64,000 nucleotides of DNA. Source: an uncultured Acidobacteriota bacterium. GTDB taxonomy: Bacteria; Acidobacteriota; Polarisedimenticolia; J045. The notes beneath the pieces were generated by a model. It was given only the letters and a program-made list of their open reading frames with translations. It did no database searches and was not told the DNA's origin. Of the stretch, positions 3,051 to 61,299 are shown in pieces; position 1 is the first letter of the stretch, and each line of letters starts with the position of its first letter. The position numbers and the translations under genes were made by a program. The DNA lies in the NCBI GenBank assembly GCA_963702425.1, contig CAVPCQ010000006.1, positions 288,001-352,000 on the forward strand, in the 5' to 3' direction.

Positions 3051-3083
3051 GACGCGCCCCTGCGCGGCCGTCGCCAGCCGGCC

Positions 3084-4934: not shown

Positions 4935-5031
4935 AGGGCCTCCGGCAGAGCGTTCCGACCGCGCCGCGGCCGGGTCGGCGGGGCAAGCCTCCCGCAGAGC
5001 AGGAACCTATCTTCCCACGGGGCTGTTGACG

Positions 5032-11575: not shown

Positions 11576-11591
11576 AGGCACGAAAGTTGCT
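11576..11591 (+). promoter_or_regulatory. sigma54 (-24/-12) promoter
   Basis: AGGCAC-GAAAG-TTGCT, 12 nt before the ATG at 11604. Confidence 0.75.
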
Positions 11592-13472: not shown

Positions 13473-14875
<1,403 letters not shown>

Positions 14876-14879
<4 letters not shown>

Positions 14880-18244: not shown

Positions 18245-18248
18245 GGCC

Positions 18249-19520
18249 CTACCTCCTGAAGTCCTGGTGACAGGTGACGCAGAGGTCCATCTTCTTGTCC
18301 TGCCACGTGATGTACTTGTGCGCCGACCCGTGAGAGTCGTGGCAGCTCAGGCAATCGACACGCACGTTCTTGCTGCGCGGATCGACCACGTCCTTGCCGA
18401 TCGGGTGTGTCGAGTGTTCCTTCCAGTCGTGACAGGAGGCGCAGACGGCCGTCGAGTCCGCGGCGTTGAACAGCAGAACCGTGTTCGAACCGTGCGGTGC
18501 GTGGCAGGCGGAACAGTTCCCGTCGGCAACCGGTGCGTGCTTCGCGGTCGAGCCGAGCGCCTGTTTGACGGCGTCCGAGTGGCACGAGCCGCAGACCTTG
18601 ATCTCCGGACCCGCGAGCAGCTTCCCGGCCTTCGAGGCGTGGGGCCGGTGGCAATTGAGGCAGGCCTTCCGGTCGAGCACCGGCCAGTGGACGCGGTTCA
18701 GTCCCATGGTCTCGTTCACCAGCTCGCTGTGGCAACCGCGGCAGCCGTCGATCCCCGACTTCTTCACCTTGAGCGCGTCGGGCGAGGCGGCATCGAAGTG
18801 GCAGTTGGCGCACATCCGGTTGGCGACCGGCTGGTGGACGCTGGCCCAGAGGATCCCCTTCTGGCTCGAGCCGTGGGGATCGTGGCACGAGGCGCAGTCG
18901 GACTTGCCGACCGGGTAGTTCAGGTGCGCGGTCCGGAACGGCGCTGCGTCGGTCTTGTGGCACTCGACGCACAGCCCCGGGGTCGACTTCACCAGCAGAT
19001 GATCGGACTCCTTGGAACTGTGCGGGTTGTGGCAGCCGAGGCACGACTTGCTGACCGGGCCGTGCTTGAACGTCGCAGCCTCGACGGCCTTGCCAAGGTC
19101 GGCGTGACACTTGAAGCACAGGGCGGAACCGGAAGCCAGCAGTTGGTCCTTGCTCCCCGAGGCGTGGGGATCGTGGCACTTGGTGCACTGGCCGTCCACG
19201 GCGTCCTGGTGGGCGCTCTTCGCCCCCGCGGGGACGATGTCGGCGTGACAGGTCGCGCAGATCCGGTCCGGACTCTCCGCCAGCAGCTTGCCGTGCGAGG
19301 AAGCGTGCGGGCTGTGGCAGTCGCTGCACTCGCCGGCCCTGACCGGCGTGTGCACGAACGGCTGCTTCATCGTCTCCTGGAACTGCACGTGGCAGGACAG
19401 GCAGGCCTTGCCTTTCGCCCCGGGCTTCAGCTTGTACTTCGCCTCGTCGGTCTGACCCGCCGCCCCGGCCGCAGAGAGGGCCGCGAGGAGGACGAACGCG
19501 ACGATGAGTCGGGTCTTCAT
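18249..19520 (-). CDS. periplasmic multiheme cytochrome c, 16 CxxCH motifs
   Basis: Signal peptide; 16 CxxCH counted in repeating H-xn-CxxCH-xxH units. Confidence 0.95.
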   Translation of the reverse strand: MKTRLIVAFVLLAALSAAGAAGQTDEAKYKLKPGAKGKACLSCHVQFQETMKQPFVHTPVRAGECSDCHSPHASSHGKLLAESPDRICATCHADIVPAGAKSAHQDAVDGQCTKCHDPHASGSKDQLLASGSALCFKCHADLGKAVEAATFKHGPVSKSCLGCHNPHSSKESDHLLVKSTPGLCVECHKTDAAPFRTAHLNYPVGKSDCASCHDPHGSSQKGILWASVHQPVANRMCANCHFDAASPDALKVKKSGIDGCRGCHSELVNETMGLNRVHWPVLDRKACLNCHRPHASKAGKLLAGPEIKVCGSCHSDAVKQALGSTAKHAPVADGNCSACHAPHGSNTVLLFNAADSTAVCASCHDWKEHSTHPIGKDVVDPRSKNVRVDCLSCHDSHGSAHKYITWQDKKMDLCVTCHQDFRR

Positions 19521-19530
19521 GACTCGTCTC

Positions 19531-21504
19531 CTACCGCTTCGTCACGGTGTGGCACTCCTCGCAGGAGCCGCCGACGAAGGGAGCGTGGACCTCCGCCTGG
19601 AAGAGGTGCGGATCCTTCGAGGCGTGGGGGGCGTGGCAGCTGACGCAGTTCATCACCGCCGGGTCGATCGAGAGGTGCTTGTTGGCGAACGAAGCGTCCT
19701 TGACGTCGTGGCAGGTGGCGCAGAGCGTTCCCTGCGGCTCGGTGAGCAGCGCCGCCTGCGGACCCTCGTGGGGGCGGTGGCAGGTCTGGCAGTCGCTCTC
19801 GACGGGCGCGTGGACGGTGCCGGCCTTCATCGTCTCGGCGAGCGTCTTGTGGCACGACAGGCACAGGTCGGTGCCGGACGCGAGGAGCAGCTTCGGGAGC
19901 TTGGTCGCGTGGCCGCCGTGGCAGCCGGAGCACTGCCCGTCGGCGACCGGCTTGTGCTTGGCCCGGGCCGCCTTGACGGCATCGGTCACATCCGCGTGGC
20001 ACTCGCCGCAGACCTGGGTCTGGCCCGCCTTCATCAGGCCCGTGACGTTGGAAGCGTGGACCGCGTGGCAGGTGGCGCAGTCCCCGGCCTCGAACGGCGC
20101 GTGGACCGTCTGGCCCTCGGCCGGCTTCATCATCCCGCCGTGGCAGGTCGCGCAGAGGTCGGAGCCGGCCTTGACCAGCAGCTTCGGCTGCGCCGCGCCG
20201 TGAGCGGCGTGGCACGGCGAGCAGTTCCCGTTCATCACCGGCCCGTGGACGCTGGTCTTGGCGAAGTCGGCCTCGGCGTCGCTGTGGCAGCCGTAGCAGA
20301 CCCGGTCCTCGCGGTCGATCAGGAGGTGCGGCGCCTGCGAACCGTGGGGGTTGTGGCACGACGAGCACATCCCCTCCTGAAACGGCGTGTGCGCCACCTT
20401 GAAGGTCTCGGCCTTCTGCTTGCTGTGGCAGGGGTAGCAGAGCTCGGCGTCCTTGGCGAGCAGCAGCCCCTTCTCCTTCGCCGCGTGCGCACCGTGACAG
20501 GAGAGGCAGCCCTTCCCTTCGCCGACGGCCTTGTGCGCGACCGTCATCGACGCGGTCTGCTCCTTGTGACAGTCGGCGCAGAGCGCATTCCCGGACTTTC
20601 GGAGCAGGTCGGGAGCCTGCGAGGCGTGCGGATCGTGGCACGACGAGCACTTCCCGGCCGTGAACGGTGCGTGAACGATCTTCGCACCGCCGGTCAGCGT
20701 CGCTTCGTCGTGGCAGGTGGCACAGAGGGCCACGCCATCGCTCGTGACCGCGAACGGCTTGGCGTCCTTGGCGTCGGCGTGGCAAGCGCTACAGCTCCCC
20801 GACGCCACGGGATCGTGGGCGCTGACCTTCAGGAGACCCTTCTGCACCGAGGAGTGGGGGTCGTGGCAAAGCGAGCAGTCCGCGTTTTGAACCGGGTAGC
20901 CCTCGTGGGCCTTGCGGAACGGCTCCTTGCCGGCGTCGTGGCACTCGGCGCAGAGCTGCGCCTTCGGTTTGAGCAGCAGGTCCGGCTGGTCGGCGCTGTG
21001 GGAACCGTGGCACGCCGTGCAGCCCGTCGTCTCGAGCGGCGCGTGGACGACCGCCTGCTCGAACGGCTTGCGGTCGTGGCACTCGTAGCAGGCGGCCGCA
21101 CCCTGGGCCTTGAGCAGGTCCGCCCCCGCGCCGCCGTGCGGGTCGTGGCAGGCCGTGCACTTGGCCCGCTTCAGCGGGGTGTGCACGTGAGGCTTGCCGA
21201 GCCCCAGCGACTCCTTGGTGTGACACGATTCGCACAGGGCGTTCCCGTCCTTCTTGAGCAGCATCTTCGGAACCAGCCCGTGGCGGAGGTGGCAATCCTC
21301 GCACCGGCCTTCCTTCACGCCCGGGTGCGCGCTGGCGTAGGACTTCATCGTCTCGGCGAACTTCGAGTGGCAGTCGAGGCAACCCTTCTTCTCGACCTTC
21401 TTCTGGGCGAGCGCCGGCGGGGCGGAGAGCGCCGCCAACGTCAGGCCCGCGCAGAGCGCGAAAAGCGCGCGGGATGCCTTCGGGCCACGAGACTGAGGTC
21501 GCAT
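19531..21504 (-). CDS. periplasmic multiheme cytochrome c, 26 CxxCH motifs
   Basis: GGAGG SD before the ATG at 21504; signal peptide ending ALA; 26 CxxCH counted. Confidence 0.95.
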   Translation of the reverse strand: MRPQSRGPKASRALFALCAGLTLAALSAPPALAQKKVEKKGCLDCHSKFAETMKSYASAHPGVKEGRCEDCHLRHGLVPKMLLKKDGNALCESCHTKESLGLGKPHVHTPLKRAKCTACHDPHGGAGADLLKAQGAAACYECHDRKPFEQAVVHAPLETTGCTACHGSHSADQPDLLLKPKAQLCAECHDAGKEPFRKAHEGYPVQNADCSLCHDPHSSVQKGLLKVSAHDPVASGSCSACHADAKDAKPFAVTSDGVALCATCHDEATLTGGAKIVHAPFTAGKCSSCHDPHASQAPDLLRKSGNALCADCHKEQTASMTVAHKAVGEGKGCLSCHGAHAAKEKGLLLAKDAELCYPCHSKQKAETFKVAHTPFQEGMCSSCHNPHGSQAPHLLIDREDRVCYGCHSDAEADFAKTSVHGPVMNGNCSPCHAAHGAAQPKLLVKAGSDLCATCHGGMMKPAEGQTVHAPFEAGDCATCHAVHASNVTGLMKAGQTQVCGECHADVTDAVKAARAKHKPVADGQCSGCHGGHATKLPKLLLASGTDLCLSCHKTLAETMKAGTVHAPVESDCQTCHRPHEGPQAALLTEPQGTLCATCHDVKDASFANKHLSIDPAVMNCVSCHAPHASKDPHLFQAEVHAPFVGGSCEECHTVTKR

Positions 21505-21593
21505 ACGGTGCTCCACCTCCGAACCCCTGGATCGCGAGATGATACCGGGTTGAATGAAGCCGTGCAGCAAGTTTGTTAGTTTCGCTTGTAACT

Positions 21594-29071: not shown

Positions 29072-30421
29072 CTAGTCCTGAGCGTGGCACTTGTTGCAGA
29101 GCACGCGGTCGTACGGACCGAAGTGCGTGGAGGCATCGCGGCCGTAGTACGCGACCTGCCAGTTGGCGATCGTCCGGCCGCGGGACTGGGCCGGGCCACG
29201 ACCGGTCGTGCCGATCGTCGGGTTGTCCGAACCGGGGTAGTTCCCGCCCTTGGTCATGAACTCGTAGCCGTAGTCCCAGCGCAGATCCTCGACGAAGCCG
29301 GAGGCGTGGGCGCGGTGGCAGGAGAGGCACATGACCTCGGCACCCGCTCCGGGGCCGCTGAGGAAGCTGTCGTTGATCTGGGCGTGCGACGCCAGCACCG
29401 CGATCGACGAAGTCGCCTCGGCGAACGGAACGAGGGTGCTGTAGGCCAGGGTGCTGTTGCCGTTGAGCCGGCCGGAGGAGACGTACGCGTTGTAGTTGGT
29501 CGCTTCGGAACCGGTCGACGAACCGACGGGGCCGACGCCGAGGGCCTCGCCCGTCGGGTGGTGCTCGTCGTCGCCGCCGGCGACGTTGAAGTCACCGTGG
29601 CAGGCGCCGCACCAGGTGCCCCAGTCGTTCGCCGAACCGGCGCCGCCGTAGGCCACGCGGGTCTGGTCGGTGTTCTCGTTGCGGTTGTAGGTCGACGGGG
29701 AGACCGCGACCGGGTAGCTGGTGTAGTTCGCACCAGCCGGCGGGTTCGGCGACGCCGGGGCCCACAGCAGGCGGTAGATGCCGACGGCGAGACCGGTCGG
29801 GGCGCCCTGGTTCTCCTGGCCGCCGCCGCCGTAGGTGTTGGCCTTCGGGACCGCGCCGTAGGAGCCGGAGGTGTAGATCGGCTCGCCGCTGCCCGTGCCG
29901 CCGAAGCCGCCGACGCCGTTGTTGTACAGCTGCCGGCCCTTGCCGTGCGGGTCGTGGCAGCTCTGGCAGCCGAGGACCGACGCGTCGAAGGTGCCGCCCG
30001 GGCCGTACGGCCGACGGGTGTCCGGCGCGAAGCCGAAGTCGGAGGCCACGATGCTGTGGCCGCGGGTGTAGCCGGGCTCGCTGTAGTTGGTCCCGCTGAG
30101 CACCCACGTGAAGTCGACCTTCAGCCAGCCGAAGTCGCCGCCCGGCGTCATCTGGACGGGCATCTTGGTCGTGGAGGCGTCGAGCGTGGCCACGTGGTAG
30201 CTGCTCGGTGCAGTGTCCACCGTGTTGCCGTGGCAGGACGGGTTGATGCAGGTCGAGCTGGCGTCACCGCCGAGCAGCAGGTTGCCGTCGGTCGAGGTCG
30301 CCTCGTGCATGCTGTGGCAGCCTTCGCACTCGGCAACGCCGCCGGAATGGAACGCGAACGCGTTCAGGCCGACTGCCGCGAGAAGCACCGCCAGTACTAC
30401 GATGATCCGGTTCCGCTTCAT
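29072..30421 (-). CDS. omcS: OmcS-family hexaheme c-type cytochrome (nanowire subunit candidate)
   Basis: Mature N-terminus FHSGGVAECEGCHSMH; PSSYH, QMTPGGDFGW, CHDPHGK, PSTYNR, TRVAYG, CLSCHRAHASGF, AYYGR and terminal LCNKCHAQD all recall Geobacter OmcS. Confidence 0.9.
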   Translation of the reverse strand: MKRNRIIVVLAVLLAAVGLNAFAFHSGGVAECEGCHSMHEATSTDGNLLLGGDASSTCINPSCHGNTVDTAPSSYHVATLDASTTKMPVQMTPGGDFGWLKVDFTWVLSGTNYSEPGYTRGHSIVASDFGFAPDTRRPYGPGGTFDASVLGCQSCHDPHGKGRQLYNNGVGGFGGTGSGEPIYTSGSYGAVPKANTYGGGGQENQGAPTGLAVGIYRLLWAPASPNPPAGANYTSYPVAVSPSTYNRNENTDQTRVAYGGAGSANDWGTWCGACHGDFNVAGGDDEHHPTGEALGVGPVGSSTGSEATNYNAYVSSGRLNGNSTLAYSTLVPFAEATSSIAVLASHAQINDSFLSGPGAGAEVMCLSCHRAHASGFVEDLRWDYGYEFMTKGGNYPGSDNPTIGTTGRGPAQSRGRTIANWQVAYYGRDASTHFGPYDRVLCNKCHAQD

Positions 30422-30437
30422 TTCTCACTCCTCCTTT

Positions 30438-30522
30438 CCCCCGGCAGCCCGGCCATCCTGACCATTCAGGACCCTCGGCTTTGTGTCCCCGTCTTGCGGC
30501 GGGTTTACCTTTCTCGGAGGGG
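30438..30522 (-). ncRNA. cyclic-di-GMP-I (GEMM-I) riboswitch in the omcS leader
   Basis: AAAGGTAAA-CCCGCC-GCAA-GACGGG-GACACAAAGCC..TCCTGA-ATGG-TCAGGA..GGCCGGGCTGCCG. Conserved GAC, AAAG and GNRA loop, covarying T-A pair, P1 CCTCCG/CGGGGG. Confidence 0.85.
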
Positions 30523-30623
30523 CGCTTGCGTTGGTTACATCTCGTACCCTGAAACCCCTGTTCTCTTCGTGTTCCGTTTCCTCTGCGGCACGCCGGCCTG
30601 CCGTCCCTCCTTCTCTCCCGGAG

Positions 30624-31589
30624 CTAGCCCCGCTCTCCGGAAGGCGAGAGCGTGAAGACCGCGACGCCGCGGTTCCGCAACTGCGATACGAACAACCGGC
30701 CGGCCGCCGAAATGGCCAGGTCGGCCGGCCTGATCATCTTTCCATCGGCGGTCCCGTACCCGCCGAACTCGGTGACGAACTGCAGGCCGCTGTCGAAGAC
30801 GTTGACCGAGCTGCGCAGCATGTCCGCGACGTAGATGTTCCCGGCGGCGTCGGTGGCGACCGAGCCGGCCAGGTTGAACTTGCCCGGCCGCGAGCCGGCC
30901 TCGCCGAAGCGGCGGACGGCGCCGTCGGGCGCCATCACGTAGACGCCGAAGTCGATCGGCACGCTGACGATCACGTTCCCCTGCGGGTCGACCGCCATCC
31001 CGGCGAAGTCGGCGTTCTTGCGGATCTCCTTCTCGTCCGGCAGGGACTCGGTGAAGTCCTTGACCTGCAGCAGGCCGGCGCGCTTGTTCAGCACCAGGAC
31101 CTGCAGCCGGTTCGACGCTCCGAGGTAGAACTTGCCGCCGGCGTAGATCACCGTGCTGGGCGAGAAGTCCTTCAGCCCATCCGGGATCCCCGCCGGCAGC
31201 AGCTTCTCCTGCGGTACGCCGCGGTAGTCGCAGCGCAGCAGGAAGAAGTCGCCGCCGCCCGGGCGCCGGATCGGTTCGTAGCCGAGGAAGTAGAGGTCGC
31301 CGGTCTCGTCGACCGCGACGTCGTAGATCGTCCCGGCTGCCGGGTCGAGCGGGAAGGAGTAGGTTTCCATCCCGGTCGGCCCGAAGACCCTGAGGAAGCC
31401 CTCGCTCAGGATGAAGGCCTCTTCCCGCACGGCGTCCAGCCGGACCCGCACGCCCATGAACGGCACCGTCCCCGTGAAGTCGGCGAGGTTGTACTCGAAG
31501 CGGGGGGCGATCTCCGCCGCGGGCGCGACGCCGACCGCAGCGACCAGCGTCGCTGCCAGAGCCAGAACCGTGTGGGGGACGCTCCTCAT
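30624..31589 (-). CDS. NHL-repeat exported protein
   Basis: Signal peptide; FGEAGSRPGKFN..VATDAAGNIYVAD and FGGYGTADGKMIRPADLAI NHL repeats. Confidence 0.85.
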   Translation of the reverse strand: MRSVPHTVLALAATLVAAVGVAPAAEIAPRFEYNLADFTGTVPFMGVRVRLDAVREEAFILSEGFLRVFGPTGMETYSFPLDPAAGTIYDVAVDETGDLYFLGYEPIRRPGGGDFFLLRCDYRGVPQEKLLPAGIPDGLKDFSPSTVIYAGGKFYLGASNRLQVLVLNKRAGLLQVKDFTESLPDEKEIRKNADFAGMAVDPQGNVIVSVPIDFGVYVMAPDGAVRRFGEAGSRPGKFNLAGSVATDAAGNIYVADMLRSSVNVFDSGLQFVTEFGGYGTADGKMIRPADLAISAAGRLFVSQLRNRGVAVFTLSPSGERG

Positions 31590-31604: not shown

Positions 31605-31620
31605 AGCAATACACGTGCCA
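31605..31620 (-). promoter_or_regulatory. sigma54 (-24/-12) promoter of the cytochrome operon
   Basis: TGGCAC-GTGTA-TTGCT, a perfect consensus on the minus strand. Confidence 0.85.
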
Positions 31621-34767: not shown

Positions 34768-35592
34768 TCAGCGCGTCGCCACGGCGGCCCCGGCCACGGA
34801 CATCGCGGACGCCGGCTGCGGCGCGGGTCGTCCGAGCGCCTGCTGGACGTCCCAGCGCGGGTGGCCGATGTCGTGGCACCCGAGGCACAGCGCCCGCCGG
34901 CTCTCCGTCGTCGTCAGGGCGCGGTGCGAACCGTAGACGCGGTGGCAGCTGGCGCAGCTCACGCGACCCTCGACGAGCCGGGCCGACGGGCCGATCTCTG
35001 CGGCGGCGCGGTAGACGCCGCCGCGCGTCGGCCGCGCCGAGCCGTAGTCGATGAGCGGGTGCGAGTGGCCGACCTCGATCTGCGGAGGCATCCCCGGGAA
35101 GTCGGGGACCAGTTCGGCCCCGCCGTGACAGGCCAGGCAGCGTTTCGAGAAGTCGTCGACCTCCGGCTCCGTCCCGTCCAGGCCGGCCGGCGCGGGTCCG
35201 GCGAGCCGAGGCCCGCCGTGCACGGTGTCGGGGTACTGCGCGTGCGGCGTGTCCCACGCGCCGCTGGCCGCGCGGTGGCAGCGCGCACAGAGCTCGGGGA
35301 CGGTCACCCGCAGGAAGAAATCGGCGTCGGCGGCCTCGCGCCCTGCAGGGCCGTGCCCGGCGTGGCAGGTCAGGCACGTGACGCGCCCCGCGTCGAGCGG
35401 CAGCCCGGCTGCATCGCCGGAGACTCGACCGAGCACAGGCACGTCGATCGGGTGGGTGGGCATGTCCGACTGGGGGGCGCGCACGTGGCAGGTGACGCAG
35501 AGCTCGCTGCCGTCCGACGCGAGAGCGGGAAGCGGGGCGAGGGCCAGGGCGCACAGCGCCCCGGCGACCGCCACGCGGCCAAGGGTGGCCAT
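34768..35592 (-). CDS. exported hexaheme c-type cytochrome
   Basis: Signal peptide; CVTCH, CLTCH, CARCH, CLACH, CASCH, CLGCH. Confidence 0.9.
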   Translation of the reverse strand: MATLGRVAVAGALCALALAPLPALASDGSELCVTCHVRAPQSDMPTHPIDVPVLGRVSGDAAGLPLDAGRVTCLTCHAGHGPAGREAADADFFLRVTVPELCARCHRAASGAWDTPHAQYPDTVHGGPRLAGPAPAGLDGTEPEVDDFSKRCLACHGGAELVPDFPGMPPQIEVGHSHPLIDYGSARPTRGGVYRAAAEIGPSARLVEGRVSCASCHRVYGSHRALTTTESRRALCLGCHDIGHPRWDVQQALGRPAPQPASAMSVAGAAVATR

Positions 35593-48827: not shown

Positions 48828-49949
48828 ATGCAGCACGGCACGCGAACCGAGCCCCCTGCGCCCCGCACCAGCCTCCCGCGCCAGGTCCTCGACGACATCC
48901 GCCACGGGAACCTGCGCCGCGAGGTCGGCCGCGACCTGACCGAGCTCTACGGCTTCTTCCTCGACGACGAGCAGCAGCAGCGTGCGGCGACGATGGCGCG
49001 TCCCAAGCGCTGGTTCATGGTCCCGTGGTGGGCCCTGAAGAGCCTGCTGCGCCGCCTCGCCGCGCCGCGCCGCGTGCTGCTCGTGCTCGCGCTGATCTTC
49101 GCCGTCCTGGGGGAGACGCGGATCGAGTCGCCGGACGGATCGATCTCGATCGGCGGCGACCTGCAGCCGCTGGCGATCCTGCTGCTGCTGGTGATCCTGA
49201 TGCTCGAGCTGAAGGACAAGCTGGTGGCGCGCGACGAGATCGAGGTCGCGCGGCAGGTCCAGTTGGCGCTCCTGCCGCGGCACCAGCCGGTCCTCGAGGG
49301 CTGGGACATCTGGCTCTACACCCGCCCGGCGAACGACGTCGGCGGCGACCTCGTCGACTTCCTCGAGCTGCCCGGACGGCGGCTCGCGCTCGCGCTGGGC
49401 GACGTCTCCGGCAAGGGGATGGGCGCGGCGCTCCTGATGGCGAAGCTGCAGGCGACGCTGCGCGCGCTGGTCCCGCTGGACGCCGCGCTCGCCGACCTGG
49501 GGGCGCACGTCAACCGGATCCTGTGCCGCGACAGCGTCGAGAACCGCTACGCGACCCTGCTCTACGCCGAGCTGGGCGCCGACTCGGGGAGCGTCCGGCT
49601 GCTCAACGCCGGGCACCTGCTGCCGCTGGTCGTGCGGGCCGGCGCGCACGAGCGACTGGCCCCGATGGCGATGCCGCTCGGGATGTTCCGCGAGGCGGTT
49701 TTCGTCGAGCAGGAGGTCGCGCTCGGCGGCGACGACATGCTCGTCCTCTGCTCCGACGGGCTGTCGGAGGCGCAGGACCCGACCGGCCAGTTCTTCGGCG
49801 AGGCGCGCCTGGTGGCGCTGACGCCGTCGCTCCGCGGGCTGGCGGCGGCGGCGGCGGGGGCCGTCCTGCTGCGGGAGATCGAGCGTTTCCTGGCCGGGGC
49901 GCGGCCGGCCGACGACCTCTCGCTGGCGATCGTACGCCGGCTCCCCTGA
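48828..49949 (+). CDS. membrane-anchored PP2C/SpoIIE (RsbU-like) phosphatase
   Basis: ARQVQLALLP, VGGD, GDVSGKG, NAGH, SDGLSEA, DDLS. Confidence 0.9.
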   Translation: MQHGTRTEPPAPRTSLPRQVLDDIRHGNLRREVGRDLTELYGFFLDDEQQQRAATMARPKRWFMVPWWALKSLLRRLAAPRRVLLVLALIFAVLGETRIESPDGSISIGGDLQPLAILLLLVILMLELKDKLVARDEIEVARQVQLALLPRHQPVLEGWDIWLYTRPANDVGGDLVDFLELPGRRLALALGDVSGKGMGAALLMAKLQATLRALVPLDAALADLGAHVNRILCRDSVENRYATLLYAELGADSGSVRLLNAGHLLPLVVRAGAHERLAPMAMPLGMFREAVFVEQEVALGGDDMLVLCSDGLSEAQDPTGQFFGEARLVALTPSLRGLAAAAAGAVLLREIERFLAGARPADDLSLAIVRRLP

Positions 49950-54518: not shown

Positions 54519-55094
54519 ATGAGCCGCAAGAAGAACCTCGCGATGTCGCCCCGTGACCGCCGGATCGCATTTGCCCTCGTGGTGGGCATGCTCGTCGTCG
54601 GCGGCCTCCTCGTCTCGACCGGCATCTTCATCCCGGCCGGTCCGCCGACCCGCTCGCCCGGTGCGATCCCGGGGGTCAGCAACCCCGCCTCCCTGGCCCG
54701 GGCTCCGCGACTCGAGGGTTACCCAGCTCCCGACCGGGCGCTGGGACCGGACGACCTCAAGCCGGACCAGGTGACGGCACTCCCGGAATCCGCGCGCGGC
54801 GAGCTGCGCTGGTCGCTGGGCTGGACGGGGCGCCGCGACGGGCTCCAGGTGCGGCTGCTGCTCTTCGCCAACTCGGAAGCGGCCAGAGCGTCGCTGGCTG
54901 CCGCACCGGGCGACCGCCCGCTCGAGGGGCTCGGCGAGGCGGCCGTCCGGCGCGGGTCAGACCGGATCCTGTTCGTCCGCGGCAGCGCCCTCGGGGTCGT
55001 CTCCGCCGCCGGGGCCCCGCCTCCCGAGGCCCTGTCGAACGCCGCACACGAACTCGACGACGCGCTGGCCCGGAGCTCGCTGGTCCTTCCCTAG
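54519..55094 (+). CDS. hypothetical single-TM membrane protein
   Basis: One hydrophobic helix followed by a soluble domain; fills the gap between neighbours. Confidence 0.55.
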   Translation: MSRKKNLAMSPRDRRIAFALVVGMLVVGGLLVSTGIFIPAGPPTRSPGAIPGVSNPASLARAPRLEGYPAPDRALGPDDLKPDQVTALPESARGELRWSLGWTGRRDGLQVRLLLFANSEAARASLAAAPGDRPLEGLGEAAVRRGSDRILFVRGSALGVVSAAGAPPPEALSNAAHELDDALARSSLVLP

Positions 55095-57002
55095 CGCTCC
55101 TTCGTTTTCTTGTGCAGGCGGTACGCGCGAATCTTCGTCGAGAGCGTGCGGCGGTCGAGCCCGGTCGCCTGCGCCGTGTCCTGCACCCGGCCGCGGTGGC
55201 GTTCCAGCGCGCTCCGGAAGTAGTGCTCTTCGAAGCGGTCGCGTGCCGTTCGCCAGGGGAGTGCGAGCAGTTCGTGCCACGGACCGTGCGGGGCGGCCGG
55301 CGGTGAAGTCGGTACAAGGTCGCCGGGCAGGTCGTCGAGGTCCACGATCCCGTCGCGGTCGAGCACCACCGCCCGCTCGATCACATTCCGCAGCTCGCGC
55401 ACGTTCCCGGGCCAGGCGTAGTCCGACAGCACCTTCACGGCGGCGGCGGAGAGCGCGCCGACGCGCTGGCCGTCCGGCCGCAGGAAGTGCTCGAGGAAGT
55501 GGGTGGCCAGCGGAACGACGTCGCCCGGGCGGTCGCACAGCGACGGCAGCACGACCTCGATCACGCGCAGCCGGTAGTAGAGGTCCTCGCGGAACGTGCC
55601 CTCCGCGACCATCTGCTCGAGCGGACGGTGAGTGGCGGCGACCAGCCGGACGTCGACGCGGCAGCGGCTGCCGCCGACGTGCGTCACCTCGCCGGTCTCG
55701 ATCACGCGCAGGATCTTGGCCTGGGCGGCAAGCGGCAGGTCGCCGATCTCGTCCAGGAAGAGCGTGCCGCCGTCGGCTTGCTCGAAGGCGCCGGCGCGCG
55801 CGCGGTCGGCGCCGGTGTAGGACCCGCGATCCGCTCCGAAGAGCTCGGCCTCGACGAGGCCCTCCGGCAGCGCCGCGCCGTTGAGGGCGACGAATGGGTG
55901 CTCGCGGCGCGGGCCGGCGCGGTGAGCGAGCCGCGCCAGCTCCTCCTTGCCGGTCCCGCTCGGTCCGCGCAGCAGGATCGTCGCGCGCGAGGGCGCGGCG
56001 CGGCGCACCGCCTCGACCGCGGCCTGGAAGGTCGGATCGTCCCCGATCAGCGGCGGCTCCGAGCCGGCCGGCGCCTCGGCTCCGCCGCGGCCGCGCCGCA
56101 GGAGCCGCTCGGCGGCCTCGCGGCGGCGGCGCTCGCGATCGAGCGTCAGCGCGCCCTCGACGAGGACGCCGGCGATCGCGCCCAGGCGCGTCGCGGCCGC
56201 CAACGCGCCGCCGCCCGGGACCCGCGTCCCCTCGAGGTACGCGACCGCCGCGAAGTCGGCGTGCGCGCCGCGCAGCGGCACCGCGGTGAGGACCGTGCCC
56301 GCAGCGTATTGATCGAGCGCGGTCTTCTCGTCGGCGTGTACGCGCAGCACGCTGGCCGGGCTCGCGGACCAGGCCTCGGCGCGCCCGCGCGCCGCCTCGA
56401 GAAAGCTCCGCGACAGGCAGACCGGACCGCTGCCGCCGCGCGAGCCGCGCAGCACCCAGCGCTCGCCCGCGAGCGTCACGAGGTAGCCGCGCTCGGCGTC
56501 GACCAGCGCGAGCAGCTCGGCCAGCAACCGCGGAGAAGATCTCGCGCCCCGCGCCGATCGCGGCGATCCGCTCGAGGGCGTCGAGCAGCGGCGGCTCCGT
56601 CCGTGCGGTCGGATCGGGAGCGTGGGCGTCGGCGAGCGTCGCGCCGAGCGGCTCCTCCTCGTCGAGCCACACCGCCTGATCGAGCGCCATCGCGGGAACG
56701 AAGCGGTAGGGTCCGACCAGCACGCGGTCGCCGGGCTGCAGCACGACCGACTCGTCCGGATCGAGGCGGCGCACAGAGGCACCGCGCTCGAGCCATGTCC
56801 CGTTGCGGCTCGAGAGGTCGCGCACGACGATCTGTTCGCCGTCCCAGATGACCTCGGCGTGGCGTGCCGTAACGCGCTGGTCGCCGAGGACGACGTCGCA
56901 GTTCCGCGAGCGCCCGAGCACCCGGGGACGCCGATCGCTCAGCTCGATCGCCTCACCCGAACCGGCGTGCCCCCCGCCGCCGACCATCCAGAGGGTGGAC
57001 AT
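55091..57002 (-). CDS. FHA-GAF-sigma54 enhancer-binding protein (frameshift near 56530)
   Basis: FHA LGRSRNCD..TARHA..SRNGT; GPSGTGKE, ELFGADRGSYTGA, LDEIG, WPGNVREL, HTH. Confidence 0.88.
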
Positions 57003-57102
57003 CGGAGCCCTCCCTGCCGTGAATGCGGGAAGCATACTTCCCGTCCCGCCCCGCAAGGGGAAGTACGCTTCCTCTTTCGGGGCAGAAGGGACCGGAAATG
57101 GC

Positions 57103-57118
57103 TGGCGCGCCATTTGCA
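57103..57118 (+). promoter_or_regulatory. sigma54 (-24/-12) promoter
   Basis: TGGCGC-GCCAT-TTGCA. Confidence 0.7.
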
Positions 57119-57128
57119 CTAGGAGTGG

Positions 57129-57252
57129 GCGCTTGGCCTGTTCTCGGGCGGGCACGAGCGGCGCAAGGCGGGCCCGATGTCACGTCATGGGGCAAGGGGG
57201 TGGCCGCCGGGGGGAGTGGGGGGAGTTCGCCGCTGGTGCCCGCTCTTCTTTT
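57129..57252 (+). ncRNA. candidate sigma54-dependent small RNA
   Basis: Lies downstream of the sigma54 site with no credible plus-strand CDS. An 18-bp stem (57146-57163 with 57228-57245) is followed by TTCTTTT. Confidence 0.45.
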
Positions 57253-57278
57253 CCCCCCGCCCCGGTCGAGAGGTCGGT

Positions 57279-57962
57279 TCAGCGCGTCGGGCGCGACCGC
57301 TCCGCCACCGGCCTTTCTGCCGCCCGGCCCTGCTCCGGCTCACTGCCGCCCACGAGCTGAAGGAAGCACTCGATCCGCGTCGCCTCGGCCGCGTCGCGCT
57401 GCGCCGACCGGTGCGCGGCGATCCGGCGCAGACCGAGGACGGCCTTCTGATCGCCCGGATCGCGCAGCACGAGCGCCGCGAGCAGCTTGACCGCCAGCGG
57501 CCACAGCGACGATTCGGCCAGCGCGCCCCCCAGCGCGAGCAGCTGCGCCCGCGACGCCCCGAGCGCCGTCGGCTCCGCGTCGAGCGCTTCGAGGAGCTCC
57601 GCCGCGAGCAGTCCCTGACGGGCCCGGAAGCAGAGCGGGAGCGCTTCGCGCGCGACCGCCACGGCAGCGGTCTCCTGCCCGGCGTTCCGGAGGGACAGGC
57701 AGAGCGCGTGGAGTACCCAGGGGTCCGGGGCGAAAGACGAGGAGACGGCCAGCAGTTCCGCCAGGGCGCCGTCGGGATCCTCGGCGGCCCGGGAGCGGGC
57801 CAGGGCCGCTCGCCGCGCCCCGTCCGGGAGGATCGGGCGCGGGAGCTCCTCGGGCGGCTCGCCGCAGAGCTCGCCGGACGAACGGGTCGACAGGCCCGCC
57901 GCGGGGCGCTCGGCGCGCGTGGCCGCCTCCCCGGCCTCCGGCTGCCTCCGGCGCCAGCGCAT
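57279..57962 (-). CDS. hypothetical TPR-like helical protein
   Basis: Helical repeat-like composition; start uncertain. Confidence 0.5.
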   Translation of the reverse strand: MRWRRRQPEAGEAATRAERPAAGLSTRSSGELCGEPPEELPRPILPDGARRAALARSRAAEDPDGALAELLAVSSSFAPDPWVLHALCLSLRNAGQETAAVAVAREALPLCFRARQGLLAAELLEALDAEPTALGASRAQLLALGGALAESSLWPLAVKLLAALVLRDPGDQKAVLGLRRIAAHRSAQRDAAEATRIECFLQLVGGSEPEQGRAAERPVAERSRPTR

Positions 57963-58102
57963 GCCGCTCTCCCGGGGCGCTCCCCGCCCCCGGGAGAAGG
58001 TCGCCGCGGAGGCCGGCGCTGTCGACCCGATCCGATTGGCAGGGTTCAGAAAAGTCGGGGAAACTGACTTCGTAGCCGTATTATTCCGTGGGGGGTAGAT
58101 CG

Positions 58103-61100
58103 ATGTCCGTGCCGAGACGTTGCACGAGGCGTCATGGGCGCCGAATTCCTCGGGTGCCGGTGCTGGCTGCCCTGGCGTTTTCGGCGCTGGCCGGCCTGAC
58201 GCCGGCCGCGTGGTCCGGTTCGGTCCAGCCCGAACTGGCGGCTGCCGTGATGCGGTCGCGCGCCGCGGACCGCGTCTCCGTCGTCGTTCGGCTGGAGCCG
58301 GCACCTCACGCTGCGCCGCTTCGCCTGCCGGAGAGCCGCGCCGAGCTCGTGACGCTGCGTCGCGCCCAGACCGAGACGTCGGCCGCGGCCGTGCTCGCGA
58401 TGCTGCGCCGCGCCGAGCGCGACGGGCAGGCCGAAGCGTGCGAGGTGCTGTGGGTCGCGCACGCGGTCACCGCGCGCATCGCACCCGAGCTGGTGCCGCG
58501 GCTCGCCGGACTCCCCGGCGTGCTCGAGGTCCGTCTCGACCGCCCCGTCGGCCCCGACGACGGCGACGGCGACACTTCCGGCCCCAGCCCCACCGCGCCG
58601 CGCACGGCGGCGATCCTGAAGCTGAACGTCGACGACGTCTGGGCCGCGGGCTACACCGGCCGCCACGTGCTGGTCGCCATCATCGACGACGGAGTGAACA
58701 TCAACCACCCCGATCTGGCCGACCACCTCTGGGCGAACCCCGGTGAGATCGCGGGCGACGGGATCGACAACGACGGCAATGGCAAGATCGACGACGTCCG
58801 CGGCTGGAACTTCGGCAGCAGCAACGCCAGCCTGACCGACCTGCAGAACCACGGCACGCCGGTGGCGGGCCTGGCGCTGGGCGACGGGACGGCCGGATCG
58901 CAGACCGGGGTCGCCCCGGATGCGGAGCTGATGGTCCTCAAGCGCGGTTCCACCGAGTCGACGATGTGGGCGGCCAGCCAGTACGCGATCGAGAAGGGGG
59001 CGCAGATCGTGCTCCAGGCCCGCTCGGTCCGGCGCTACGATCCGGCGGGCGTCCCCGACTACGGCAGTTGGCGTACCGTCACCGACAACGAGCTGGCCGC
59101 CGGCGTCATCCGCGTCAACTCGGCGGGGAACTGCTTCGGCTGCACCGAAGGCGCGCTCCCCGAGAACCCGCCCTACCAGGTCAACGCGCCGGCCAACGCG
59201 CCCCCGCCGCTGCTGCACGCCGCGCAGACGCTGATCGGCGGCGTCTCGTCGGTGATCGCCGTCGGCAACGTCGATCTCGGCGACAACATCGTCGGCACCA
59301 GCCGGCGCGGCCCGTCGGAGTGGATCGACTTGCAGGCCTCCGACCCGTCGTATCTCTACCCGATGCCGCTCGCCTACCGGGACTACCCGTACGCCGGCGG
59401 CGCGCAGCAGGGGCTGCTCAAGCCCGACGTCGCCTGCTACGGCGAGGGCTCGACCGCACCGTCGGCATTCTGGGAGACCGGGCCGGACTACAACGTCGGG
59501 ACGTTCAACGGCACGAGCGGCGCCGCCGGCCACGCCGCCGGCGTCGTCGCGCTGCTGCTCGAGGCCAAGCCGGACGCCACCCCGGCGCAGCTCGCCCAGG
59601 CCCTCTTCGGCACGGCGCGCGACCGCGGCGCACCGGGCTTCGACCCGTTCTACGGCGAGGGGATCGTCGACGCCTACGCTGCGCTGGCGGCGATCGGCGC
59701 GCCCTGTTTCGGTTTCGGCGGCGATGCCGACGGCGACGCGGTCTGCCAGGCGGCAGACAACTGCCCGACGGTCGTGAACCCGCTGCAGGCCAACCTCGAC
59801 GGCGACACGCTGGGCGATGCCTGCGACCCCGACCAGGACGGCGACGGCTTCAACGGCGGGACCGGCAACCCGGACTGCGACGATCGCAACGCCGCGATCA
59901 AACCGACCGCGGCCGAGCTGTGCGATCTCGTCGACAACGACTGCGACGCCTCCGCCGACGAGAACCCCGAGGCGGGCGCGAACAGCTGCGCCGACGGGAA
60001 CATCTGCACCGCCGACCTGTGCGGAGCCGGTGCGACCTGCACCGCCGCCGCGAGCGGCGCGTGCGGCATCACCGGTTCGATGACGTACTACCGGATCTCC
60101 GATGCCGACCGCAACGGCACCGCGGACGACCCGGCGGAGCTGACGGGCGCCGATCCGGTGCCGGGAGTGGCGATCGACCTCGTCGGCCTCGGCTCGCTGC
60201 CGGACGCGATCACGGGGAGCGATGGCAGTTTCTCGCTCCCGGCGCAGTTCGGCAACGTGACGCTGGTCCCGCTCGACCGGGTGAACGCGCCGCGGGCCGA
60301 GGGGGCCGCACCCGGCTCGATCAGCGGGTTCGACGCCGCGGCCGTGGCCAAGCACGCCGTCGGGCTCACGACGCTGACCAACCTGCAGCAGATCGCGGCC
60401 GACGTGTCGGAGAACGGGACGGTCAGCTCCTTCGACGCCTCGCTGATCGCGCAGTACGCGGTCGGGCTGATCGACTTCTTCCCCGTCCGCACGAGCCTCG
60501 GTTCGGACTGGGCGTTCGTTCGCTGCAACGGCGGACTGCCCGGAAACTGCCCGGCCTGGCCACCGCACCCGCCGACCGCGTCGTATGCCTGGACCCCGAT
60601 CGGGCAGCCCGAGTCCGCACCCTTCTTCGCCATCCTCTATGGCGACGTCACGGGAAATTGGCCGCTGGTCGCGGGGTTGGATGGCGGCGTGTTCACGGCG
60701 CAGGCGGCCCCTTCCAGGGACTCGACGAACGCCGCGAATCGGAGGCCGCGCGGCGCCTCGCCGGTGCTGCGCTCCGGGAGCGACCCCGCGCGGCTGGTCC
60801 GCATCGCCGGCCCGACCCGGGTCGGACCGCGACTCTACCGCGTCGTGCTCGGCCTCAAGCAGGCCGACGGCATCACGGCCCTCGATCTGTTCGCACCCGC
60901 CCCGAAGATGCCCGGGCTCCGGATCGTGTCGGTGCGCCCGGTCGGCCTGGCAGCCGCGTGGTCGGCCGCGCTCGGCCCGCTCGAGGCTGCCGGGCAGCGG
61001 ATCGCGCTGTACGGTGCCGGCCCCCTCGCCGGGCGCGGCGCGGTGCTCGAGCTCGTTTTCGAGGCGAGCGGCCCGCCGGAACGGGGACGCCTTCCGTTCC

Positions 61101-61144
61101 CGATCGAAGCCTCGGCCAACGAAGGCGCGATCCCGATCCGCTGA
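58103..61144 (+). CDS. secreted S8 subtilase with TSP3-like Ca-binding repeats, dockerin-like repeat and cohesin-like C-terminus
   Basis: VAIIDDG, HGTPVAG, GTSGAAGHAAG triad; DNCP..NPLQ..DGDTLGDACD; DCDD..ELCDLVDNDCD; DVSENGTVSSFDASLI. Confidence 0.85.
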   Translation: MSVPRRCTRRHGRRIPRVPVLAALAFSALAGLTPAAWSGSVQPELAAAVMRSRAADRVSVVVRLEPAPHAAPLRLPESRAELVTLRRAQTETSAAAVLAMLRRAERDGQAEACEVLWVAHAVTARIAPELVPRLAGLPGVLEVRLDRPVGPDDGDGDTSGPSPTAPRTAAILKLNVDDVWAAGYTGRHVLVAIIDDGVNINHPDLADHLWANPGEIAGDGIDNDGNGKIDDVRGWNFGSSNASLTDLQNHGTPVAGLALGDGTAGSQTGVAPDAELMVLKRGSTESTMWAASQYAIEKGAQIVLQARSVRRYDPAGVPDYGSWRTVTDNELAAGVIRVNSAGNCFGCTEGALPENPPYQVNAPANAPPPLLHAAQTLIGGVSSVIAVGNVDLGDNIVGTSRRGPSEWIDLQASDPSYLYPMPLAYRDYPYAGGAQQGLLKPDVACYGEGSTAPSAFWETGPDYNVGTFNGTSGAAGHAAGVVALLLEAKPDATPAQLAQALFGTARDRGAPGFDPFYGEGIVDAYAALAAIGAPCFGFGGDADGDAVCQAADNCPTVVNPLQANLDGDTLGDACDPDQDGDGFNGGTGNPDCDDRNAAIKPTAAELCDLVDNDCDASADENPEAGANSCADGNICTADLCGAGATCTAAASGACGITGSMTYYRISDADRNGTADDPAELTGADPVPGVAIDLVGLGSLPDAITGSDGSFSLPAQFGNVTLVPLDRVNAPRAEGAAPGSISGFDAAAVAKHAVGLTTLTNLQQIAADVSENGTVSSFDASLIAQYAVGLIDFFPVRTSLGSDWAFVRCNGGLPGNCPAWPPHPPTASYAWTPIGQPESAPFFAILYGDVTGNWPLVAGLDGGVFTAQAAPSRDSTNAANRRPRGASPVLRSGSDPARLVRIAGPTRVGPRLYRVVLGLKQADGITALDLFAPAPKMPGLRIVSVRPVGLAAAWSAALGPLEAAGQRIALYGAGPLAGRGAVLELVFEASGPPERGRLPFPIEASANEGAIPIR

Positions 61145-61283: not shown

Positions 61284-61299
61284 GGGCACGCCGGTTGCT
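61284..61299 (+). promoter_or_regulatory. sigma54 (-24/-12) promoter
   Basis: GGGCAC-GCCGG-TTGCT upstream of the AGGAGG SD and the ATG at 61337. Confidence 0.6.

Follow-up and report, generated by a model that had tools for sequence, protein, structure and literature searches.

A 64,000-nt stretch of DNA from an uncultured Acidobacteriota bacterium (GCA_963702425.1, contig CAVPCQ010000006.1, positions 288,001-352,000 of the forward strand; hereafter the window) carries a candidate gene for a structured small RNA that lies divergent from the gene of a sigma-54 activator. In our best reading, which we hold with roughly even confidence, this gene gives a trans-acting small RNA of about 120 nt that depends on sigma-54 and on the activator, and its layout is that of qrr1-luxO. 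The promoter, the stem, the U-rich tail, the G-tracts and the gap without a coding sequence were all present in the window sequence where the original prediction had placed them. The locus was compared with two related acidobacterial MAGs (L001 and L005) and with two distant orthologous loci (L002 and L004), and the whole module of activator, palindromes, promoter and RNA element is retained in L001 and L005.

Sigma-54 promoter and candidate enhancer sites

The promoter TGGCGCGCCATTTGCA (57103-57118, plus strand; GG at 57104-57105 and GC at 57116-57117) has one mismatch to TGGCAC-N5-TTGCW, so it is near-consensus as predicted. Matches with at most one mismatch were enriched in the window (4 versus 0.67 expected, and 0 of 100 shuffles reached 4), and all four of them lie immediately upstream of a co-oriented feature; matches with at most two mismatches were at chance level (13 versus 12.6 expected). 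The counterparts of the promoter are TGGCCCGCCGTTTGCA in L005 and TGGCCCGCCGTTTGCT in L001, and both keep the GG and the GC.

The promoter faces away from the activator gene, as had been proposed, and candidate enhancer sites (UAS) are also present. These are the palindromes GGAAGCATACTTCC (57028-57041, site 1) and GGAAGTACGCTTCC (57059-57072, site 2), the only two perfect GGAAG-N4-CTTCC sites in the whole window. Site 2 starts 31 bp after site 1 and about 43-44 bp before the promoter, and the two palindromes sit 58-101 bp upstream of the predicted transcription start (+1). Site 1 is 93-100% identical in L005 and L001, and the flanking spacers are 52-76% identical. The start-to-start spacing was 30-31 bp in all four loci in which both sites were matched (window, L005, L002 and L004); site 2 of L001 has a variant half-site, which was missed by the regular expression. 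Among the six loci that include the upstream region, five (window, L001, L005, L002 and L004, not L003) have two palindromes about 31 bp apart and a promoter beside the orthologous activator gene. In L002 and L004, where paired half-sites likewise stand upstream of the sigma-54 promoter, the homologous enhancer-promoter module drives a 503-aa ORF and a histidine kinase gene, respectively, so that, depending on the lineage, one cassette would serve either a histidine kinase gene or a non-coding RNA. The paired arrangement is kept even in orthologues with only 37-42% N-terminal identity, and GGAAG-N4-CTTCC pairs 30-31 bp apart are the predicted DNA site of this FHA/GAF activator family. Since the two sites are also 26-70 bp upstream of the start codon of the activator gene, binding of the activator probably regulates its own gene as well.

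Divergent activator gene

The activator gene (55091-57002, minus strand) was delimited by Pfam, orthologues and a structure model, and it codes for an FHA domain, a domain of GAF fold, a sigma-54 AAA+ domain, a lid and a Fis-type HTH. In this genome an additional base near 56526, which L001 and L005 do not have, splits it into two frames: the FHA reading frame starts at the ATG at 57002, and the GAF/AAA+/HTH reading frame begins at about 56530 and ends with the stop at 55091 (both on the minus strand). Unless this frameshift is an assembly error, the promoter may be inactive or misregulated in this genome. The orthologues (628-636 aa) have FHA and AAA+ within one frame. Pfam analysis gave matches to FHA (E = 5.7e-15), Sigma54_activat (E = 2.7e-62), AAA_lid_14 and HTH_8, and the loop motif of the AAA+ domain reads GSYTGA in place of GAFTGA. 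No sigma-54 factor (rpoN) was found among the window ORFs scanned with Pfam.

No Pfam GAF model matched the middle domain. Its AlphaFold model (residues encoded by 56051-56527) had a pLDDT of 88.8, and the best PDB matches in Foldseek were mostly GAF domains (3cit, 3k2n, 4g3v and others; best E = 6.9e-4, TM 0.5-0.66), with 3k2n and 4g3v being GAF domains of sigma-54 regulators. The GAF domain named in the original prediction was thus recovered as a modelled fold and not as a Pfam sequence family. In the FHA domain, G30, R31, S45, H48, N67 and G68, which we take to be the phosphothreonine-binding residues, are invariant across 19 orthologues. Control by Ser/Thr phosphorylation had also been proposed; the FHA domain is present, and phosphorylation control itself would follow from this domain only. 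A TPR-kinase gene (4840-7992) and a PP2C/SpoIIE phosphatase gene (48828-49949) lie at distances of about 50 kb and about 5 kb, respectively. Neither is adjacent to the activator locus, and a link to a Ser/Thr kinase by gene neighbourhood was rejected for that reason.

Conserved candidate RNA element with a long stem and a U-rich tail

By the sigma-54 promoter rule, transcription is predicted to start at 57129 (plus strand), 12 nt past the GC of the -12 element. This position opens an invariant 5' block GCGCUUGGCC (57129-57138), which is identical at 10 of 10 positions in L001 and at 10 of 11 in L005 (one gap column); the preceding 10 nt are 50% identical and the following 8 nt 50-62%. The long basal stem comes next on the same strand, with GGGCGGGCACGAGCGGCG (57146-57163) as its 5' arm and CGCCGCTGGTGCCCGCTC (57228-57245) as its 3' arm, 18 nt each with one mismatch and one G-U around a 64-nt interior (57164-57227). 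TTCTTTT begins right after the stem, and the U-rich tail UUCUUUUCCC (57246-57255) is the likely 3' end, judged by its T-richness and by the drop of conservation there. The tail is U-rich in the relatives too (UCUUUCUA in L005 and UUUUCCUG in L001). Across the plus strand of the 64 kb, 8-mers with at least six T form just six clusters, the tail included. The predicted stem with one mismatch, one G-U and a U-rich tail behind it is therefore found at 57146-57255.

A custom count (18 nt, at most one mismatch, at most one G-U, loop 3-120) returned this stem as the sole one of such quality on either strand of the window. But four of ten first-order Markov simulations gave at least one such stem, so the stem alone is not beyond chance. 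A T-rich tail behind the window's only stem of its quality supports termination. Two generic programs did not list it, both for reasons of their settings: an inverted-repeat finder with a 9-nt seed missed the stem because its longest exact run is 8 nt, and a terminator scan of 56400-58400, L005 5450-6010 and L001 5550-6010 gave 0 sites because the interior exceeds its 8-nt loop limit. The unit is bounded by its own promoter and its own terminator-like stem and tail and falls within the 50-300 nt of a small RNA gene.

Conservation follows the element closely. The conserved span begins at the predicted +1 and ends at the tail. Identity to L005 in 57147-57247 was 89 of 101 positions (88%), versus 0.634 in the adjacent gene, counted at 287 fourfold-degenerate sites. 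Both UAS sites, the promoter, the 5' block and the region from stem to stem are 81-100% identical, whereas the spacers, positions -11 to -1, the linker and the DNA behind the tail are 30-76% identical, with 37-54% past the tail. A permissive search of 56500-57800 against Rfam 15 gave no family match; the eight matches at E <= 10 were all far below gathering, the best of them to a microRNA model with 24.1 bits versus a gathering score of 82. Rfam 15 has no family for the element, in agreement with the claim that the RNA is undescribed. A covariance model (R1) of the three homologues was used to search the window and 12 loci (171,016 bases). It matched only the three source copies (144-147 bits), the next match was 20.8 bits on the reverse strand at the same place, and no paralogues were found in this search.

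Folding and covariation

The reality of the element rests on conservation and not on folding energy. The single-sequence fold of the plus strand was no stabler than shuffles (z = -0.19; 76 of 200 shuffles were as good), and the ensemble probability of the long stem was 0.00-0.15 in the window sequence versus 0.92-0.97 in L005 and L001. The minimum-energy fold of the window pairs the G-tracts with CUCUUCUUUUCCCCCC, but it was not accepted as the conserved fold, since this C-run is missing from L001 and L005, which form the long stem. In the RNAalifold consensus, examined together with pair counts, the interior has an inner helix (57167-57175 with 57198-57208), an apical hairpin (57178-57195) and an unpaired purine tract GGGGGGAGUGGGGGGAGUU (57209-57227). 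The 5' block is single-stranded in the consensus; an alternative partner for it is offered by the 5' arm of the long stem.

Counted over the three sequences, the consensus structure has 102 pair cells, and every one of them is a standard pair. Within these three sequences, which come from one narrow clade, 30 of the 34 consensus pairs are invariant, and the other four vary, always compatibly, two of them on one side and two (46:76 and 52:69) on both sides. With only three sequences from one narrow clade the covariation is not significant, and 114 of 500 shuffles scored as high. Thus, when homologues beside orthologous activators were compared, as the original prediction had suggested, the structure was kept in L001 and L005, but covariation was weak.

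Proposed mechanism

In the proposed mechanism, the FHA/GAF/AAA+ activator encoded by the divergent gene would dock on both GGAAG-N4-CTTCC palindromes and so trigger sigma-54 RNA polymerase to make a non-coding RNA of about 120-125 nt, from 57129 to about 57252 (plus strand). The FHA domain could sense phospho-threonine partners, and the GAF fold a ligand. The 18-bp GC-rich basal stem and the U-rich tail would act together as an intrinsic terminator that sets the 3' end. In its mature form the RNA would consist of the invariant 10-nt 5' end, probably single-stranded, a closed stem of three tiers, and an exposed purine tract (GGGGGGAGU, then GGGGGAG). It would relay the signal of the activator in trans to other transcripts or to an RNA-binding protein. 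As for possible targets, the complement of the 5' block occurred at chance frequency in the window (18 versus 17.8). When the 5' end and the purine tract were each tested by RNAduplex against the -80 to +30 regions of 33 predicted genes, no outlier emerged in this GC-rich genome; the best values were -22.9 and -36.9 kcal/mol, and the medians -16.3 and -27.3 kcal/mol, respectively.

Alternative readings

The main rival arises from the genes downstream. In L001 and L005 the element stands upstream of a co-oriented S8 subtilase gene, which makes a role as leader or attenuator a real rival, although we consider it rather unlikely. By this account the element is the cis-acting 5' leader of the subtilase gene and the sigma-54 promoter is the regulated promoter of that gene. 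The element would then be a conditional terminator, with read-through set by a factor on the G-rich interior or by an alternative 5' hairpin, and the terminated product could additionally act in trans. The subtilase is the next gene in both relatives, starting about 115 nt past the tail in L001 and 233 nt past it in L005 (76% identical over 1013 aa), and in L004 and L002 it is protein genes that this enhancer-promoter module drives. Promoter-proximal structure and a stem with a U-tract before a co-oriented gene, here in two of three genomes, are also seen in attenuators and riboswitch leaders. In the nascent 40-60 nt, an alternative hairpin of -16 to -19 kcal/mol could be drawn in all three homologues. 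In this hairpin, positions +2 to +10 pair with part of the 5' arm of the terminator, which excludes the terminator, and the variable linker forms the loop. However, the hairpin was not beyond chance: shuffled 5' segments folded equally well in 8-9% of trials, and shuffled 10-mers matched the arm as well as the 5' block in 6-19%. Also, the long stem closes the entire element, with no separate expression platform as in attenuators, no riboswitch, leader family or known aptamer matched in Rfam, and the 40-60 nt past the tail are poorly conserved, with indels. A conserved A/T-rich box (TATTAT/TATCAT) and a sigma-70-like match toward the subtilase in L005 suggest from the sequence that the subtilase has its own promoter.

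In the window itself, the ATG of the subtilase gene (58103-61144, plus strand; Pfam Peptidase_S8, E = 2.4e-39) comes 848 nt after the tail, with a convergent gene in between, yet the element and the subtilase ORF are both intact. The convergent gene is a 227-aa ORF (57279-57962, minus strand) whose codon-position GC fits a minus-strand gene; it has no Pfam family, but besides the window's own protein its homologues form six clusters at 57-79% identity. It is context outside the RNA. The segment of about 739 nt that carries it (57294-58032) is absent from L001 and L005, and for a leader one has to assume that this segment was inserted between leader and gene here. The promoter had been called an orphan, which fits this genome and does not fit L001 and L005, where the subtilase follows the element at 115-233 nt. 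The conserved block might also act as DNA or on the minus strand, as the promoter or operator of the activator gene or as its long 5' UTR. It does lie upstream of the activator gene, whose own promoter was not located, and an inverted repeat folds on either strand. But conservation starts exactly at the predicted plus-strand start and stops at the plus-strand U-rich tail, while the sequence behind the stem on the minus strand is GAGAACAGG, which has no U-tract. Moreover, the plus-strand G-U pairs 21:119, 46:76, 52:69, 54:66 and 55:65 become A-C mismatches on the minus strand, and the minus-strand fold was weaker than shuffles (z = +0.72), which leaves this option improbable. Still less probable, to the point of being negligible, is a small protein translated from the sigma-54 transcript. 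All three plus-strand frames are open across the gap in this genome with a GC content of 72.6%, and there are ATG codons at 57177 and 57187. Against this, 57140-57280 showed no codon-position GC periodicity, and none of the ORFs across the gap could be assigned to a Pfam family. The homologues differ within the element by a 1-nt indel, starts, frames, lengths and stops differ among the three genomes, and the sequence fully diverges past the tail. An ORF shared by the three genomes is thereby ruled out, and the small-ORF reading was rejected; the gap holds no credible coding sequence, as first described.

Comparison with known systems

CrcZ of Pseudomonas is a small RNA that depends on CbrB and sigma-54 and is encoded beside the activator gene, downstream of cbrB. 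It is about 400 nt long, carries several A-rich motifs and sequesters a protein on repeated short motifs. By analogy, the tandem GGGGGAG purine tract of the element could sequester a protein in much the same way.

The small RNA favoured here is closest in layout to qrr1-luxO, in which the small RNA gene and the gene of the sigma-54 activator that controls it likewise point away from each other, with the sites in the shared intergenic region. According to PMC8043402, qrr1 and luxO run in opposite directions, qrr1 being 151 bp upstream of luxO, and there are sites for LuxO-P and sigma-54; the predicted start of our element is 127 bp from the ATG of the activator gene. Like qrr1, the element would give an RNA of about 100 nt with a terminator hairpin at its end. 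However, it has no sequence or structure similarity to Qrr and no Rfam match to Qrr at E <= 10, its activator has FHA and GAF-fold inputs, unlike LuxO, a response regulator with a receiver domain, and its host belongs to the Acidobacteriota and not to the Vibrionaceae. The pxr gene of Myxococcus xanthus has its own sigma-54 promoter and stands next to nla19, and Pxr is also a sigma-54-driven multi-stem small RNA beside a sigma-54 activator gene, with lineage-limited conservation (PMC5568312). The pxr gene is downstream of nla19 and not divergent, and Pxr folds into three stem-loops; unlike Pxr, the element has no Rfam-level match.

A literature search on acidobacterial sigma-54 small RNAs returned only a paper on Leptospirillum biofilms and gave no described RNA of this kind. 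The layout is known from other bacteria, but no description of the RNA itself was found. Regulation in Acidobacteriota is little studied. With its activator, candidate enhancer sites, sigma-54 promoter and structured RNA, the conserved module offers a concrete, testable entry point, and it predicts a direct output of the FHA/GAF activator family in one clade, within a narrow distribution (three MAGs) and an uncultured host.

G-tracts and a possible quadruplex

The G-tracts GGGG, GGGGG, GGGGGG and GGGGGG lie at 57189-57223 and are separated by loops of 3, 8 and 3 nt. Four runs of at least four G with loops of at most 8 nt occur only here on either strand of the window (0.07 expected from 30 Markov simulations), and this four-tract motif is kept in L001 and L005; motifs with runs of at least three G were at chance level in the window (13 versus 13.5 expected). 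G4-aware folding could place a quadruplex inside the stem in all three homologues. The ViennaRNA G4 model preferred the quadruplex by 5-7 kcal/mol in five of six folds (three homologues at two transcript lengths), the exception being the full-length fold of the window sequence, which was without G4. Quadruplex formation is thus possible according to these models. On the other hand, the sequence changes at pairs 46:76 and 52:69, which vary on both sides, fit better with an inner helix of Watson-Crick pairs, which would take up G-tracts 1 and 2. The G-quadruplex-like loop of the original prediction was therefore upheld as a conserved motif unique in the window, while the few covarying pairs speak for the helix.

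RNA G-quadruplexes (rG4s) were reported to regulate bacterial mRNAs in PMC6974567, the main text of which has 0 occurrences of the term sRNA. The element is like bacterial rG4s in its four tracts of 4-6 G kept in three genomes, and it differs from a plain rG4 in that tracts 1 and 2 double as the 3' strand of a helix with compatible substitutions. A bistable regulator, in which a conserved four-tier rG4 competes with the Watson-Crick helix within the terminator stem, seems to us a long shot. If it were true, the sigma-54/FHA-GAF pathway in Acidobacteriota would yield a G4 switch sensitive to cations or proteins, which would choose between release of a trans-acting small RNA and read-through toward a secreted subtilase. 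An rG4 would then form the basis of a naturally occurring bacterial small RNA or attenuator. Being conserved and locally unique, the four-tier motif makes this a tractable question in vitro.

Locus organization and sigma-54 promoter

The G+C content of the window was 72.6% and all six reading frames carried long ORFs, so genes were called by codon-position GC and Pfam; the closest relatives of the encoded proteins were Acidobacteria/Acidobacteriota MAG proteins. The activator gene, on the minus strand, has its ATG at 57002, and it was followed by a 276-nt intergenic gap (57003-57278), a 227-aa ORF without Pfam family (57279-57962, minus strand) and an S8 subtilase gene identified by Pfam on the plus strand (ATG 58103, end 61144). 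Every item in the original prediction's description of the locus was found in the sequence.

The near-consensus sigma-54 promoter said to face away from the activator was borne out: TGGCGCGCCATTTGCA (57103-57118, plus strand) has one mismatch to TGGCAC-N5-TTGCW. The window has four sites of this quality where 0.67 would be expected, and none of 100 shuffles reached four, whereas the number of two-mismatch matches in the window was at chance. This one-mismatch class looks functional in this genome, because the other three sites each lie just 5' of a co-oriented predicted gene, namely a response regulator with PilZ domain (site 11576-11591, plus strand; gene 11604), the NHL-repeat protein gene that comes first in a multihaem cytochrome cluster (31605-31620, minus strand; 31589) and a 158-aa ORF without family (61284-61299, plus strand; 61295). 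A second activator gene (HAMP-HisKA-REC-AAA+, 13473-16328) is located near the site at 11576.

Two perfect GGAAG-N4-CTTCC palindromes, and no others, occur in the window: UAS1 GGAAGCATACTTCC (57028-57041) and UAS2 GGAAGTACGCTTCC (57059-57072). They start 31 bp apart, and UAS2 starts 44 bp before the promoter. Binding sites of dimeric Fis-type HTH activators are expected to be symmetric and so placed relative to the promoter, and judged by position and symmetry the two palindromes are likely enhancer sites of such an activator.

Conservation of the element in related genomes

Full-length activator orthologues (628-636 aa; 89, 87, 86, 85, 82, 66, 56% identity and below) all contained FHA and AAA+ domains. 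Their first 370 residues were aligned, the alignment was searched against species-representative genomes, and 121 pattern matches yielded 13 confirmed relatives in 12 loci. Five orthologous loci included the upstream region: L001 and L005, with 88-93% and 80-85% DNA identity to the window, and the distant L002, L003 and L004, where the N-terminal part of the protein is 37-42% identical. L006 ended inside the gene, and the other six loci matched a short AAA+ stretch only.

The whole module of UAS pair, promoter and RNA element was present in L001 and L005. Identity of the window to L005 and L001, respectively, was 93% and 100% in UAS1, 86% and 86% in UAS2, 88% and 81% in the promoter, 50% and 50% in the 10 nt from -11 to -1, 91% and 100% in the 5' block GCGCTTGGCC (57129-57138), 50% and 62% in the following 8-nt linker, 88% and 89% in 57147-57247, and 37-42% and 53-54% after the tail. 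By this block-wise pattern, the conserved and presumably transcribed block begins exactly at the expected +1, which lies 12 nt past the -12 GC, and runs to the U-rich tail. Fourfold-degenerate sites of the activator gene, used as yardstick, were 63.4% identical in L005 (n = 287) and 82.5% in L001 (n = 302). Because its identity exceeds this yardstick, the element is clearly constrained relative to L005; the L001 comparison says little.

In L002 (5790-5945) and L004 (5800-5945), two GAAG-N4-CTTCC sites were spaced 30-31 bp and accompanied by a sigma-54 promoter that points away from the activator gene; the L003 upstream region had neither sites nor promoter. The promoter leads to a 503-aa ORF without Pfam family and then a hybrid kinase in L002, and to a histidine kinase gene in L004, so the outputs of the cassette would differ among lineages. 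Since these distant loci keep the cassette in front of protein genes, it predates the RNA, and the RNA is confined to the clade of the window. Searching the window and the 12 loci with a model of the three element copies gave no further copy.

The prediction that the gap holds no credible CDS stood up: no codon-position GC signal was found in it, the element contains a 1-nt indel among the three genomes, and the ORFs that can be drawn across it start and stop at different places, in different frames and with different lengths, so that none is common to the three.

Secondary structure and G-tracts

Both the predicted stem and the U-rich tail were present, with two 18-nt arms, 57146-57163 and 57228-57245, that pair with one mismatch and one G-U across 64 nt, and with TTCTTTT directly 3' of the stem. 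The stem was the sole example of its quality on either strand of the window, yet 4 of 10 Markov simulations gave at least one. Along the 64 kb of the plus strand, no more than six clusters of 8-mers with at least six T occurred. G-U pairs, tail and promoter direction agree and point to reading of the element from the plus strand. The single-sequence folding energy was unremarkable (z = -0.19).

The RNAalifold consensus of the window, L001 and L005 has three paired parts, namely the long basal stem, an inner helix built of GGCGG/CCGCC and GCCC/GGGU, and a small hairpin at the apex; the purine tract GGGGGGAGU(G/U)GGGGGAG is single-stranded. Each of the 102 pair cells held a standard pair, and 4 of the 34 pairs varied, each compatibly: 21:119 (G-U/A-U), 46:76 (G-U/A-U/G-C), 52:69 (U-A/G-U) and 55:65 (C-G/U-G). 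The single long-stem mismatch, 30:110, varied and was never paired. On the proposed covariation check among homologues, three sequences give weak support: 114 of 500 column shuffles scored as high. The ensemble probability of the long stem was 0.92-0.97 in L005 and L001 and 0.00-0.15 in the window, where a window-specific C-run 3' of the tail gives the G-tracts another partner.

The four predicted G-tracts, at 57189-57223, are kept in all three genomes and form the only motif of four G>=4 runs in the window (0.07 expected). Folding with the G4-aware option of ViennaRNA put a quadruplex inside the long stem in 3/3 homologues, favoured by 5-7 kcal/mol. However, tracts 1 and 2 also supply the 3' side of the inner and apical helices, in which the compatible substitutions fall, and this sequence evidence slightly favours Watson-Crick pairing that leaves tracts 3 and 4 exposed. 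The G-quadruplex-like loop of the prediction is possible, and a switch between the two modelled forms may occur.

Relation of the element to the subtilase gene

L001 and L005 align on both sides of 57294-58032 without this ~739-nt segment, which carries the convergent 227-aa ORF and may have been gained in the window's lineage or lost in the others. The next gene 3' of the element in both is the co-oriented subtilase, starting ~115 nt (L001) and 233 nt (L005) past the tail, compared with 848 nt in the window. The promoter is an orphan, as predicted, in this genome only, and its orphan state is a local accident. Homologues of the 227-aa ORF in six clusters (57-79% identity, plus the window's own protein) show it to be a real gene family. 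An apparent direct repeat of ~24 nt, imperfect and gapped, was seen by eye on either side of the segment (~57255-57277 and ~57981-58004).

We consider it an even call that the element is a stand-alone small RNA. That it is instead a cis-acting leader of the subtilase gene is rather unlikely, even though the subtilase comes next in two of the three genomes, the same cassette has protein targets in distant loci, and a conserved alternative hairpin pairs +2..+10 with the terminator 5' arm, with the variable linker as its loop. Shuffles do as well as that hairpin in 6-19% of cases, the DNA 3' of the tail is unconstrained, and in the window a convergent gene lies between, yet element and subtilase are intact. 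The subtilase also has a conserved A/T-rich box just 5' of it (TATTAT in the window and L001, TATCAT in L005), and in L005 a sigma-70-like match, GTGAAA-16-TATCAT, is aimed at it. The box, which the consensus scan read on opposite strands in different genomes, closes a conserved block (window 58030-58102; L001 5635-5705; L005 5640-5700) in the order CGATTGGC, hairpin and box. The hairpin stems of the window (AAGTC...GACTT) and L001 (AGATC...GATCT) differ by two compensatory pairs, and the block probably serves the subtilase as its own promoter or operator. Besides the stand-alone small RNA, the terminated product of a leader might also act in trans. The L001 subtilase (2594-5634) matched the window protein in four pieces alternating between two frames, which suggests several frameshifts, by assembly errors or in a pseudogene; the L005 copy was intact.

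The activator

The FHA-GAF-sigma54 label held for the FHA domain, which was found by Pfam and has invariant G-R, S-x-x-H and N-G positions in 19 orthologues. The 159-residue middle domain had no match among Pfam models, but its predicted structure (pLDDT 88.8) had mostly GAF domains as best PDB matches, including those of two sigma-54 regulators. The sigma-54-contact motif was GSYTGA in the RNA-bearing clade, comprising the window (55091-56530) and the closest orthologues (P0004-P0009), with GAYTGA in P0008 and P0009, and GAFTGA in distant orthologues without the RNA, except P0013 (GAFTSA).

An extra base near 56526 (window 56515-56530, minus strand; CCGCGGTTGCTGG vs CCG-GCGTGCTGG in L001/L005) puts the FHA domain and the GAF/AAA+/HTH part of the gene in different frames, and a 478-aa entry of the public protein set is 100% identical to the GAF/AAA+/HTH frame. 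The base may reflect an assembly error, or it may be a true mutation that leaves an activator lacking FHA. Control by Ser/Thr phosphorylation is inferred from the FHA domain only; the closest kinase gene lies at a distance of ~50 kb and the closest PP2C phosphatase gene at ~5 kb.

Comparison with known systems

CrcZ-CbrB is among the known systems compared with the element. An Rfam 15 search gave no match near a gathering score, in agreement with the expected lack of a known family. The layout of element and activator is shared by qrr1-luxO (PMC8043402), and pxr-nla19 (PMC5568312) is a less exact likeness. Bacterial rG4s are reported in mRNAs (PMC6974567). A literature search for acidobacterial small RNA and sigma-54 gave one paper, on Leptospirillum biofilms, in which each term occurs once. 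The RNA is outside all compared families, and its proposed kind, a sigma-54-dependent small RNA encoded beside its activator, is already known. The original observation is confirmed, and its interpretation is partly supported.

Elsewhere in the window, several multihaem cytochrome genes (17272-21570, 29072-31589 and 34768-35592) with up to 12 doubled CXXCH motifs neighbour NHL-repeat and beta-propeller genes, and together they point to a set of genes for extracellular electron transfer in this acidobacterium.
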